This document shows positions 26,261-28,274 of a DNA stretch of 64,000 nucleotides, in pieces. Source of the DNA: a virus; the IMG/VR virus record IMGVR_UViG_3300032288_005778, positions 1 to 64,000 of that record, one strand, 5' to 3'. Within the stretch, counting starts at the first letter, position 1, and each line of letters opens with the position of its first letter. A program made the translations under genes and the position numbers. The notes below the pieces were generated by a model. That model was not told where the DNA came from. It worked only from the letters and a program-made list of their open reading frames with translations, and ran no database searches.

Positions 26261-26540
26261 AAATTCTCCTCTTGCCTTGCCTTGCAATTCTTGCAATTAA
26301 CCCAGTTCCCCAAGTCCGGTTTCACCTTTCAGATCCTTATTCTTAGTAATTGTTCTAATACTTGCAATTAACCCAGTTCCCCAAGTCCGGTTTCACCTCG
26401 ATTAATAGATCAAGGGCTTTATCGCTTAACTTGCAATTAACCCAGTTCCCCAAGTCCGGTTTCACCATTTTCTCAGCTATATATTCGTTTTTGCAAATAA
26501 TAACTTGCAATTAACCCAGTTCCCCAAGTCCGGTTTCACC
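26201..26540 (-). CRISPR. Mini CRISPR array: five 37-nt repeats GGTGAAACCGGACTTGGGGAACTGGGTTAATTGCAAG, spacers of 37, 32, 34 and 52 nt
   Basis: Repeats at 26504-26540, 26430-26466, 26361-26397, 26290-26326 and 26201-26237 (last has 2 mismatches). Strand inferred from the cas gene direction and distal degeneracy. Confidence 0.97.
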
Positions 26541-28274
26541 TGCCGTATCCCAGATCGTAAGCTGTGTAAAGGTTTCATCCCCCGATCGCGCGGATCTCTT
26601 ATTTTTCTTTGTTCCAGGCTTTTGAGTTTTCGCTGAATTAGCTGAAATGCTTACTGGGTAAGGTGCGCGGGTGCTTGGTAAATTGTCAAGGTTCAGATTG
26701 CTTACGGTGTCTGCTTTTGGGGTTATTTTCACGGCTTTAGAGGTTTTTACATCCCCCCTTCCGCGCTGAGTTCCCCTTTCGGGGTTTAATTGGGAGGAAT
26801 ATCCATCTTCCGGTGGTGCTTGCACACCTTCCTGGTGACATTCTTTCTCAGAATCAGAGCCAGGCTTTCGGGTTTCCCCATGTTCCCACGCCCAAGCGCG
26901 GTACACTGCTGATAATTGTTTTTTGCCTTTGAGTAAGATGTTCTTGGCTGCGTTAGAATCACGTCCTTCAGTGTGACCACATTCTGTACAGCGGTGAGTT
27001 CTTTCGCTCAATGCTTTCTTTATTTTAGCACCACATTTTGAACAGTCAACCGTAGTGAAATGAGCAGCAACTTTTACAAACTCTCTATCAGTATCTTTAC
27101 ACTTTGTTTCAATCTTACTGATTAAATCACCCAGCGCTGAATCAGCAAAACTTTTGTTTAACCCGGCTTTACGTTTTGCACCGTTCTGTTCATAGCCATT
27201 GCCGTCTTCACGCTTTTTGGCTTTGGGTTTACGGTTCAGATTTTGTATCTTTAAGTCTTCCATCACAATCCCAGAATACTCACGCACAACCTTAGTAGAT
27301 AACTTATGGTTAAAAGCGTTGCGGCTGCGGCGGATCTTCTCATGGTGTAGGGCTATTTTTTGATAGGTTTTCTTCTGATTACATCCTCCTTTCTTCTGCC
27401 TAGATGCTTTACGCTGTAACCGTTTTAGCTTGGTTTGTTGTTTCCTAAATAACTTAGGCGGCTCAACTTCTCTACCCTGATCTGTGGTAATAACTGACAG
27501 TAAACCCGGATCAATTCCCACTGATTTATCAGATTTTGGCAATGGGTCATTGGGAATATCAACACATACATGAAGATAATAACCTGATGGTTCTTTAACT
27601 ATTCTAGCTGACCCCCATTCCTGCCAATCATATCTATCAAATAATCCCTTAACTTTAATTTTACCAAGCTTAGGGAACTGGACATAACCATTATTTGAAC
27701 CGGGTATTTTTTCTGGTTTTAGTTCTTTGAGTAAACCCCCGGCATTGAGATTAACAAGTGACTTGATTTTATCATTTCTCCCTTTGAATTTTGGCTTTCT
27801 ACCGGGGTGTTTTGGGGTGACGTAAGCTTTCCATGATTTCTTTAAAGAATCAATCACCCCTGCCTTAAATTTAGTGGGAACATCTGCCATAAAGTCAGGA
27901 ATATTGTCACTCCTATAAAATTCACATTGCCCATATTTATCAGGGTTTTCAATGTGTAAATATTGCCTAATTTCACAATAGGGATGACCGTTCTTAGGTC
28001 TGATGACACCTGTACCAACCAAGCGGACTTTCTCCCATTTCTCAGTAGACTTACCCTTTTTATCTTCAGTAACAACCTTTCGCCATTTCCACTGTAGAAC
28101 CACACCATCGGGAATAACGCGATCGCCTATTTCTTTTTCTCTGTAATATTTCTGTCTTCCTGCTAACTTTAAGGATAGCCCTGTATTCCACACCCATTTA
28201 AGTTTGTTCAGCCATTGCTCAATAGTTTGTGCCTGGGCAATAGTAGGGTACATTTTAAATTCAAGGGTCTTCAT
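26511..28274 (-). CDS. TnpB-like compact type V CRISPR effector (V-U2/C2c8-like Cas12)
   Basis: IS605 OrfB-type HTH N-terminus, RuvC-I SVGIDPG, RuvC-II VMEDL, Zn ribbon CSKC/CTEC, RuvC-III RDSNAAKNI; directly abuts the array. Confidence 0.9.
   Translation of the reverse strand: MKTLEFKMYPTIAQAQTIEQWLNKLKWVWNTGLSLKLAGRQKYYREKEIGDRVIPDGVVLQWKWRKVVTEDKKGKSTEKWEKVRLVGTGVIRPKNGHPYCEIRQYLHIENPDKYGQCEFYRSDNIPDFMADVPTKFKAGVIDSLKKSWKAYVTPKHPGRKPKFKGRNDKIKSLVNLNAGGLLKELKPEKIPGSNNGYVQFPKLGKIKVKGLFDRYDWQEWGSARIVKEPSGYYLHVCVDIPNDPLPKSDKSVGIDPGLLSVITTDQGREVEPPKLFRKQQTKLKRLQRKASRQKKGGCNQKKTYQKIALHHEKIRRSRNAFNHKLSTKVVREYSGIVMEDLKIQNLNRKPKAKKREDGNGYEQNGAKRKAGLNKSFADSALGDLISKIETKCKDTDREFVKVAAHFTTVDCSKCGAKIKKALSERTHRCTECGHTEGRDSNAAKNILLKGKKQLSAVYRAWAWEHGETRKPGSDSEKECHQEGVQAPPEDGYSSQLNPERGTQRGRGDVKTSKAVKITPKADTVSNLNLDNLPSTRAPYPVSISANSAKTQKPGTKKNKRSARSGDETFTQLTIWDTAGETGLGELG
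26541..26905 (-). ncRNA. Candidate omegaRNA/tracrRNA-like scaffold overlapping the effector 3' end
   Basis: TACCGCGCTTGGGCGTGGGAA after RuvC-III, as at tnpB 3' ends; CTTGACAATTTACCAAG (26690-26674) is complementary to the repeat 3' half. Confidence 0.55.

Follow-up and report, generated by a model that had tools for sequence, protein, structure and literature searches.

The type V-U2 CRISPR locus of Aphanizomenon phage vB_AphaS-CL131 (CL131) was assigned to its type in PMC6293099, the available text of which reports no tracrRNA (trans-activating CRISPR RNA) and leaves the direction of the array open. In Cas12n (type V-N, formerly V-U4), the tracrRNA lies within a dispensable, unstructured C-terminal tail of the effector, according to the accessible part of bioRxiv 10.64898/2026.03.27.714800. 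In Cas12p ('Cas12 hacker'), the last bases of the repeat form a 4-bp pseudoknot with the 5' part of the tracrRNA, as described in the accessible part of bioRxiv 10.1101/2025.01.20.633832. TranC systems are presented in the available text of the review PMC13565253 as transposon-CRISPR intermediates with a split omega-RNA. Here we compare these systems with a C2c8 (type V-U2) locus on a 64,000-nt stretch of viral DNA (positions 1 to 64,000 of IMG/VR record IMGVR_UViG_3300032288_005778, hereafter the window); the whole record is 82,388 nt long and 83% complete. The locus is a phage-borne, cyanobacterial member of the known C2c8 family and not a new class, and is in itself ordinary for that family. 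As a whole, it is likely best explained as a V-U2 member with a dual-coded effector tail, which would bear both the guide scaffold and a clamp-like peptide, and with adaptation in trans. Its main parts are as follows.

26511–28274, minus strand: C2c8 (type V-U2) effector open reading frame (ORF), 587 aa (ORF list, Pfam, NCBIfam)
26877–28274, minus strand: conserved protein core, codons 1–466, up to the position of the CL131 stop (ratio of nonsynonymous to synonymous substitution, dN/dS)
26511–26876, minus strand: tail, codons 467–587, predicted to carry an RNA scaffold in frame as a low-complexity peptide (dN/dS, stop counts)
26290–26540, minus strand: CRISPR array, four identical 37-nt repeats with spacers of 37, 32 and 34 nt (repeat search)

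The 587-aa protein scored 480.3 bits over residues 2–420 against the NCBIfam model NF038192 (V_cas_c2c8, cut-off 350), and its relatives in a set of 5.8 billion proteins bear the NCBI name 'type V CRISPR-associated protein C2c8'. The sole related cultured phage among 50,697 records was CL131, with 77.6% DNA identity over the core. We therefore place the locus in C2c8. A first reading of the letters without database searches (the sequence-only reading) had named the V-U2 system of CL131 and concluded that the class is not new, which both PMC6293099, in its accessible part, and the NF038192 score bear out; its label of a TnpB-to-Cas12 'intermediate' adds nothing beyond what V-U systems are already said to be. 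Pfam domains OrfB_IS605, Cas12f1-like_TNB (zinc ribbon) and HTH_OrfB_IS605 were found in the protein, which scored 200.8 bits against the broad NCBIfam guided_TnpB subfamily (cut-off 100) and 173.7 bits against IS200_TnpB, below the cut-off of 425. Its best match in the PDB was the Cas12p chain 9jfs (E 9e-29, in three stretches), and its acidic residues align with the acidic motifs of a TnpB-like PDB chain. D255, E339 and D439 and the zinc-ribbon cysteines C411, C414, C429 and C432 were invariant in all five aligned relatives. Pairwise dN/dS over the core was 0.04–0.13, with an excess of third-position changes in 10/10 pairs of the window's group (23, 4 and 81 differences by codon position in an example pair).

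The window's locus shares with CL131 the gene family, the order of effector then array on one strand, the lack of other cas genes and a cyanobacterial host group. However, the annotated CL131 ORF, 466 aa long, ends ahead of the scaffold, its repeat differs save at the 3' end, and its anti-repeat is one contiguous stretch of ~30 nt. As in Cas12n, the guide scaffold would lie within the 3'-terminal part of the effector ORF, where covariation and the substitution pattern predict a structured RNA that pairs with the repeat. Cas12n nevertheless belongs to a different family (chain 9j09, Cas12n according to the accessible part of bioRxiv 10.64898/2026.03.27.714800, matched at E 9e-18, weaker than Cas12p or TnpB), whereas the tail of the present effector closes with a conserved peptide and its ORF continues into repeat 1. 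Cas12p, the best solved relative, is likewise phage-borne, 500–700 aa long and equipped with a 37-nt repeat. In contrast, the match to it is partial, its pseudoknot letters and repeat differ, and it needs host thioredoxin, with no clamp motif mentioned in the available text of its description. The protospacer-adjacent motif (PAM) of Cas12p is GTN. The predicted scaffold architecture of C2c8 resembles that of Cas12p. As with the omega-RNA of TnpB (IS200/IS605), scaffold and gene overlap at the 3' end of the latter, with the guide directly after the scaffold, and ISDra2 TnpB chains match the effector at E 3e-23; unlike in TnpB, no tnpA was found here and a repeat-spacer array stands in place of one guide. 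TranC has in common with C2c8 the concept of an omega-RNA functionally split into tracrRNA and CRISPR RNA (crRNA), but LaTranC chains match the effector only at E 3e-8. The layout with an intragenic tracrRNA is already known from Cas12n and TnpB. Our literature search found no published guide-RNA design for C2c8 / V-U2, one of few such type V groups, and the C2c8 guide architecture and clamp-like tail appear to be unpublished in the literature searched, which excluded the TranC paper and supplement S5 of PMC3971601.

The four 37-nt repeats lie on the minus strand at 26540–26504, 26466–26430, 26397–26361 and 26326–26290, followed by a variant repeat (26237–26201) and a partial one (25615–25591). 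The 25-nt repeat core occurred in five exact copies and one copy with two mismatches, all on one strand, and a control pattern gave 0 matches. The sequence-only reading had the effector ORF stopping inside repeat 1, and indeed its last nine codons and stop (26540–26511) fall within that repeat; the reading was also right that there is no separate leader, since the ORF end overlaps repeat 1 and leaves none between genes. Its statement that the window has no cas1, cas2 or tnpA extends to the whole 82,388-nt contig, in which Cas1 (PF01867), Cas2 (PF09827) and Y1 transposase (PF01797) gave 0 matches (Cas4 was not searched). Cas1 and Cas2 also gave 0 matches in two related phage records, which are 100% and 94% complete. 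An IS200/IS605 transposon was considered and rejected, since PF01797 is absent from the contig and the four repeats enclose spacers that differ from one another; the search did not extend to transposon ends.

An ORF running into repeat 1 is the usual layout of the C2c8 family. We compared 11 loci from IMG/VR, 10 from species genomes, 6 from metagenomes and more from sampled cyanobacterial genomes, where 8/401 genomes held a match at E 1e-40 or better and 6/401 at 1e-60 or better. None of the six loci from the metagenome scan belonged to a new lineage. In the window's group, L008, L009, L010 and L018 have the same 587-aa ORF, which ends in repeat 1. Repeat 1 likewise contains the stop of L019 (588 aa), a copy from a Dolichospermum circinale genome, and that of L022 (677 aa), a distant copy from Xenococcaceae, and the ORFs of L013–L017 stop 5 nt upstream of it. 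The L011 ORF runs off its contig, and that of L012 is 523 aa long owing to a deletion. CL131 has TGA at codon 467, where others have CGA, and a frame-shifting length difference of 8 nt relative to L017. The ORFs of L037 and L038 end just past RuvC-III, and the homologous scaffold sequence is intergenic in both. The tail had been put at about 130 low-complexity codons after RuvC-III, which is near the mark, with 148 codons following the RuvC-III aspartate and 121 following the position of the CL131 stop.

Some relatives show further arrangements of this region. A metagenome locus (L030, 1501–3276) has a 615-aa open frame, with the entire first repeat read through in another frame. Deletion forms fuse the tail directly to a repeat, both in an RNA-library contig (joint 26397|26766, 368 nt skipped) and in L012 (5560–5660, two repeats). 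L021, L070 and L023 have the tail and its C-terminal motif and no repeat array detectable downstream; they may be single-guide, omega-RNA-like forms.

Within and next to the tail, the following elements bear on its possible function as an RNA.

26886–26901, minus strand: 5' hairpin P1, 5-bp stem and 6-nt loop (95.4% paired, 4/5 pairs changed on both sides)
26815–26879, minus strand: three further predicted scaffold hairpins, 26879–26870, 26864–26831 and 26828–26815 (helices 2–5)
26782–26792, minus strand: putative main anti-repeat AR-1, pairing with repeat bases 24–33 with one bulge (conserved helix, covariation)
26717–26722, minus strand: putative second anti-repeat piece, pairing with the middle of the repeat (81% paired)
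26674–26690, minus strand: candidate anti-repeat of the sequence-only reading (from sequence; 78.9% paired on alignment A3; its domain is absent in CL131, L013 and L017)

Among the five 587-aa genes, the tail showed dN/dS of 0.5–1.25 and no codon periodicity in 10/10 pairs, with even differences by codon position (4, 7 and 8 in an example pair). In the same ten pairs, synonymous divergence was 0.01–0.09 in the tail versus 0.05–0.31 in the core. Such a pattern is expected of functional non-coding sequence. The nucleotides of CL131 downstream of its TGA are still conserved despite the broken frame. Because of the dN/dS values, this conservation in CL131 and the intergenic scaffold of L037 and L038, we regard the tail as under RNA constraint. 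Judged from these comparisons, it would be mainly an RNA scaffold, structured over ~400 nt from ~26906 to 26504 and continuous into repeat 1.

Alignment of the 3' tail across relatives yielded helices with compensatory changes. Five helices of the 5' module were drawn by eye on an alignment of 13 lineages and their pairs then counted. In total, 83.1% of the cells were paired, versus 38–44% with the partner slid by 1–3 columns; 17/22 pairs in the five helices (P1 included) had changed on both sides, and 0/500 shuffles reached the observed values. It should be noted that the helices were derived from the same sequences on which they were scored, so the paired share is inflated; compensatory changes are still abundant. 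Helices 2–5 were paired in 95.8, 83.1, 85.5 and 59.6% of cells, respectively. A candidate long-range helix, GCGCGG with CCGCGC, was noted by eye. P1 (26901–26886) lies inside conserved codons, and the predicted scaffold therefore begins upstream of the low-complexity tail. The earlier equation of tail and scaffold thus stands, except that the start is moved into the conserved codons.

Searches of other kinds added little. An Rfam scan of 25000–28500 at E up to 1 gave 0 matches, and a single-sequence fold of the tail was uninformative (z-score 0.05). Promoter-like sites numbered 9 versus 7.9 expected, the best at 27049–27022 on the minus strand, which is no evidence of a promoter. Logan contigs assembled from RNA libraries (4 runs, 3 studies) cover parts of 26200–28300 at 90–99% likeness, with word depths in the tail versus the 5' half of 2273 vs 40, 95 vs 8, 60 vs 3 and 118 vs 5–8. 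We did not count this depth as evidence, because contigs show neither strand, ends nor level and carried-over DNA is possible. The contigs share an end at 26511, 30 bases into the multi-copy repeat, which is possibly an assembly break rather than an RNA end.

The scaffold would contact the repeat at three places. First, the P1 loop bases 26896–26893 complement the four bases that end the repeat, with which they could form a pseudoknot. Across lineages the letters of loop and repeat end covary (CUUG with CAAG, CUUU with AAAG, GUUU with AAAC); 46/48 cells pair (95.8%) versus 33–79% when slid, and 8/8 cells pair in two rows aligned at the true repeat end. L021, L023 and L025 were left out of this scoring, as their repeat or hairpin was not identified. 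Second, at AR-1 a helix of at least 7 contiguous pairs between scaffold positions 107–136 (counted from 26906) and repeat positions 22–34 is present in 9/12 lineages, filled by at least six different sequences; L017, L024 and L036 fall below the threshold. On alignment A3, AR-1 was 98% paired, with 3/5 pairs changed on both sides. Third, at the second piece a comparison of the window with L010 shows coordinated changes in scaffold and repeat, and the helix is lengthened to 11 bp in L019. The anti-repeat pieces are fused in the CL131 group into one contiguous ~30-nt stretch. The tail-repeat duplex of L013 reached -33.3 kcal/mol, a value attained by 0/200 shuffles. Whole-tail duplex energies with cognate versus non-cognate repeats were noisy, and a clear preference for the cognate repeat was seen in L013 alone.

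The sequence-only reading had named another partner, the 17-mer 26690–26674, as a tracrRNA anti-repeat able to pair with the repeat 3' end. This 17-mer is present and, counted by hand, forms 14 pairs with 1 bulge and 2 mismatches; 78.9% of its cells pair on A3 versus 23–43% when slid, and the element at its place in L020 complements the different repeat of L020 itself (7-bp helix, scaffold 203–209). However, it forms no helix of at least 7 contiguous bp in the window, the domain that holds it is absent in CL131, L013 and L017 and so it is not a family-wide partner, and its 3' half varies in L009, L010, L011 and L018 while the repeat is unchanged. It would also compete for the same repeat bases with the pseudoknot and AR-1, which are far more widely conserved, and its position breaks the 5'-to-3' order of the three other pairings. 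We consider it improbable that this element is the anti-repeat, and the loop 26896–26893 and AR-1 (26792–26782) are probably the better conserved partners by alignment; the 17-mer is possibly a lineage-specific or alternative pairing. Of the omega-RNA split proposed earlier, the intragenic scaffold joined to the array is favored by covariation and dN/dS, whereas the anti-repeat it named is not.

Behind two C2c8 genes with 40% identity (L036, L072), ~130–190 nt past the stop, lies an array whose repeats are ordinary cyanobacterial ones that end GATTGAAAC. In both, scaffold loop and anti-repeat match this repeat, and a cas2-like gene is also found downstream of L036. This suggests that L036 and L072 may share their array type with a host adaptation module.

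The tail is also open as a reading frame. Between P1 and repeat 1, the six ORF-keeping lineages counted (the window, L010, L019, L020, L022 and L024) all had 0 stops in the ORF frame versus 4–12 in each other frame; in the window's tail, the counts were 0 versus 7 and 7. From the window's other frames (7 stops in ~122 codons), we infer that an open run of 121 codons arises by chance about once in a thousand per lineage. Insertions and deletions among the ORF-keeping lineages measured 12, 21, 33 and 12 nt (4/4 multiples of 3), and CL131 differs by 8 and 4 nt. The amino acids of the tail are free to change, but stops and frameshifts are excluded, and translation of the tail is, on this comparative evidence, quite probably under selection. 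Near its end lies a short motif.

26550–26564, minus strand: codons 571–575, QLTIW, a clamp-motif-like peptide after a Lys/Arg-rich patch (motif counts)

QLTIW stands 17 residues from the C-terminus. The pattern Q-[LM]-x-[LIFM]-aromatic, or its hexapeptide variant, was found within the last 45 residues in 86 of the 120 best relatives, mostly as QLTLW. The same patterns occurred in 7/1266 windows elsewhere in those proteins and in 14/2400 shuffled tails (0.6%). Among the compared loci, only synonymous changes separate the codons for Q and L of the motif, and the fourth codon retains its middle U.

These counts bear on an alternative in which the tail is only an RNA scaffold and leader, and the long ORF is an incidental read-through without protein function. 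A tail dN/dS of ~1 agrees with it, as do the earlier ends of CL131 (TGA and frameshift), L012 (523 aa), L025, L037 and L038, and L025 retains the motif nucleotides though its ORF has already stopped. Against it stand the absence of stops over 80–150 codons in 6/6 ORF-keeping lineages where other frames hold 4–12, the four insertions and deletions that are all multiples of 3, the C-terminal motif in 86/120 relatives versus 0.6% in controls, and the synonymous changes of its Q and L codons. We find this alternative rather unlikely. The earlier picture of an ORF that merely runs through its scaffold was accordingly not borne out, in view of the stop-free frame, the in-frame length changes and the conserved motif.

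With the tail read as a translated peptide, its motif can be compared with known ones. The binding consensus of the beta clamp is Q-L-x-L-F, found mostly at C-termini (PMC4549789, available text), and a 2014 study noted that OrfB of cyanobacterial IS200/IS605 has, C-terminally, a putative beta-binding motif (PMC3971601, available text). A gene for the host clamp protein DnaN was found. The QLxLW peptide could tether the nuclease to the host beta sliding clamp, a role suggested by motif likeness that we hold to be plausible, though a little short of probable.

The spacers of the window's array and of its relatives have few matches.

26467–26503, minus strand: spacer 1, identical to 13876–13840 of the same genome (37/37 bases)
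13840–13876, minus strand: self protospacer of spacer 1, inside a 77-aa ORF at 13752–13985 (sequence match)

In a related complete phage (G406), the site of spacer 1 matches at 36/37 bases. On the spacer-sense strand, the flank of the spacer 1 protospacer ends TTG. A distal spacer of L008 matches the window at 25112–25141 (29/30), just downstream of the array, with a flank that ends GTT, and it also matches G406 at 33160–33193 (32/34); this could reflect inter-phage targeting or captured flanking DNA. Two protospacers (flanks GTT and TTG) are too few to define a PAM. The L018 and L010 arrays had no match in the 50,697 phage records, and a comparison of ~120 unique spacers with six related phage genomes gave strong matches for only two.

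The arrays of near-identical effectors have no spacers in common, except those of L018 and L029, in which all 20 compared spacers are common. L013, L016 and L031 have three effector-distal spacers in common, and their proximal ones differ. Because only distal spacers are shared, new spacers would enter on the effector-proximal side, and the tail would be the leader side. Such turnover at the proximal end fits adaptation in trans, and a supply of spacers by host Cas1-Cas2 is plausible from the array comparison. The Dolichospermum genome with L019 carries cas1 twice, in both cases on another contig and with a different repeat. A cas1-linked array sharing the C2c8 repeat was sought in Dolichospermum G001 and rejected, as all 14 copies of the repeat core there belong to the C2c8 array. 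In one host cas1-linked array of that genome (L073, 43–819), the repeat start, in reverse complement, has ~13 bases in common with the C2c8 repeat 3' end. A prophage-borne copy in G001 was likewise rejected, since window positions 28300–48000 have no match there.

The short array also raises an alternative in which the window's copy is decaying or idle, with the effector retained and the array no longer used for interference. The array has only three regular spacers, versus 13–27 in the long arrays of L009, L010, L018 and L019, genes lie inside its tail, spacer 1 matches the phage's own genome at 37/37 bases, and relatives include deletion forms (L012 and the 26397|26766 joint in an RNA-library contig). 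On the other hand, the core is under strong purifying selection with intact catalytic residues, the four repeats are identical, the scaffold is conserved, and RNA-library contigs from 3 studies cover gene and tail. Decay of this copy therefore seems unlikely to us.

Beyond the regular repeats, the array tail contains genes.

25591–26289, minus strand: array tail with a 52-nt linker, the variant repeat (26237–26201) in the frame of a 209-aa ORF, and the partial repeat (25615–25591)

Within 25227–26326, the linker after repeat 4 has a ribosome-binding site and starts the 209-aa ORF, which reads through the variant repeat, and the same linker, after the partial repeat, starts a 112-aa ORF. Neither the 209-aa nor the 112-aa protein had a Pfam or NCBIfam match. 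The L008 array likewise holds a gene, flanked by a direct repeat of ~36 nt. Farther along, a 481-aa protein (23685–25130) combines two domains, thymidylate synthase and PterinBD-DUF4346 (Pfam).

Put together, the phage carries a TnpB-like RuvC nuclease and a short array without adaptation genes, and the scaffold transcript would run straight into repeat 1. The loop of the 5' hairpin would pair with the repeat's last four bases in a pseudoknot, AR-1, ~100 nt further on, with the bases immediately upstream of them in the repeat, and the second anti-repeat piece with the repeat's middle. With spacer 1, the transcript may behave as an omega-RNA that is left uncut, and its scaffold may serve the later spacers in trans, as a tracrRNA. 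The tail would be translated and end in a basic patch and QLxLW, through which the peptide might hold the nuclease at the host beta sliding clamp. New spacers would enter at the effector-proximal end, with the tail as the leader side, and be integrated by host Cas1-Cas2, as the array comparison suggests.

Several observations weigh against this explanation. The RNA-library data are contigs only, so strand and RNA ends were not observed. The window's anti-repeat is short, with 7 contiguous pairs, or 10 with a bulge, and the energy of its best tail-repeat duplex is no better than chance, being matched by 126/200 shuffled repeats; furthermore, the alternative helix at 26690–26674 also scores above its slid controls. 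The motif has W where the clamp consensus has F, 34/120 relatives lack it by the pattern used, and it is not translated in CL131, which was isolated as an infective phage. Finally, spacer 1 matches the phage's own genome perfectly, which in a small, gene-interrupted array could mean decay.

One stretch of DNA might even do three jobs, as scaffold, as leader side of the array and as a flexible linker ending in a clamp-binding peptide, by which the nuclease would be recruited to replicating DNA; we offer this comparative reading as tentative and somewhat doubtful. If it were true, the perfect self-match of the newest spacer would be tolerated because a PAM is lacking, or the phage would make use of it on its own genome. 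The covarying pseudoknot and anti-repeat would give a concrete single-guide design for a nuclease with a conserved core of 466 aa. The clamp link, if real, would connect an RNA-guided nuclease to the replisome and bear on how TnpB-like proteins find their targets.

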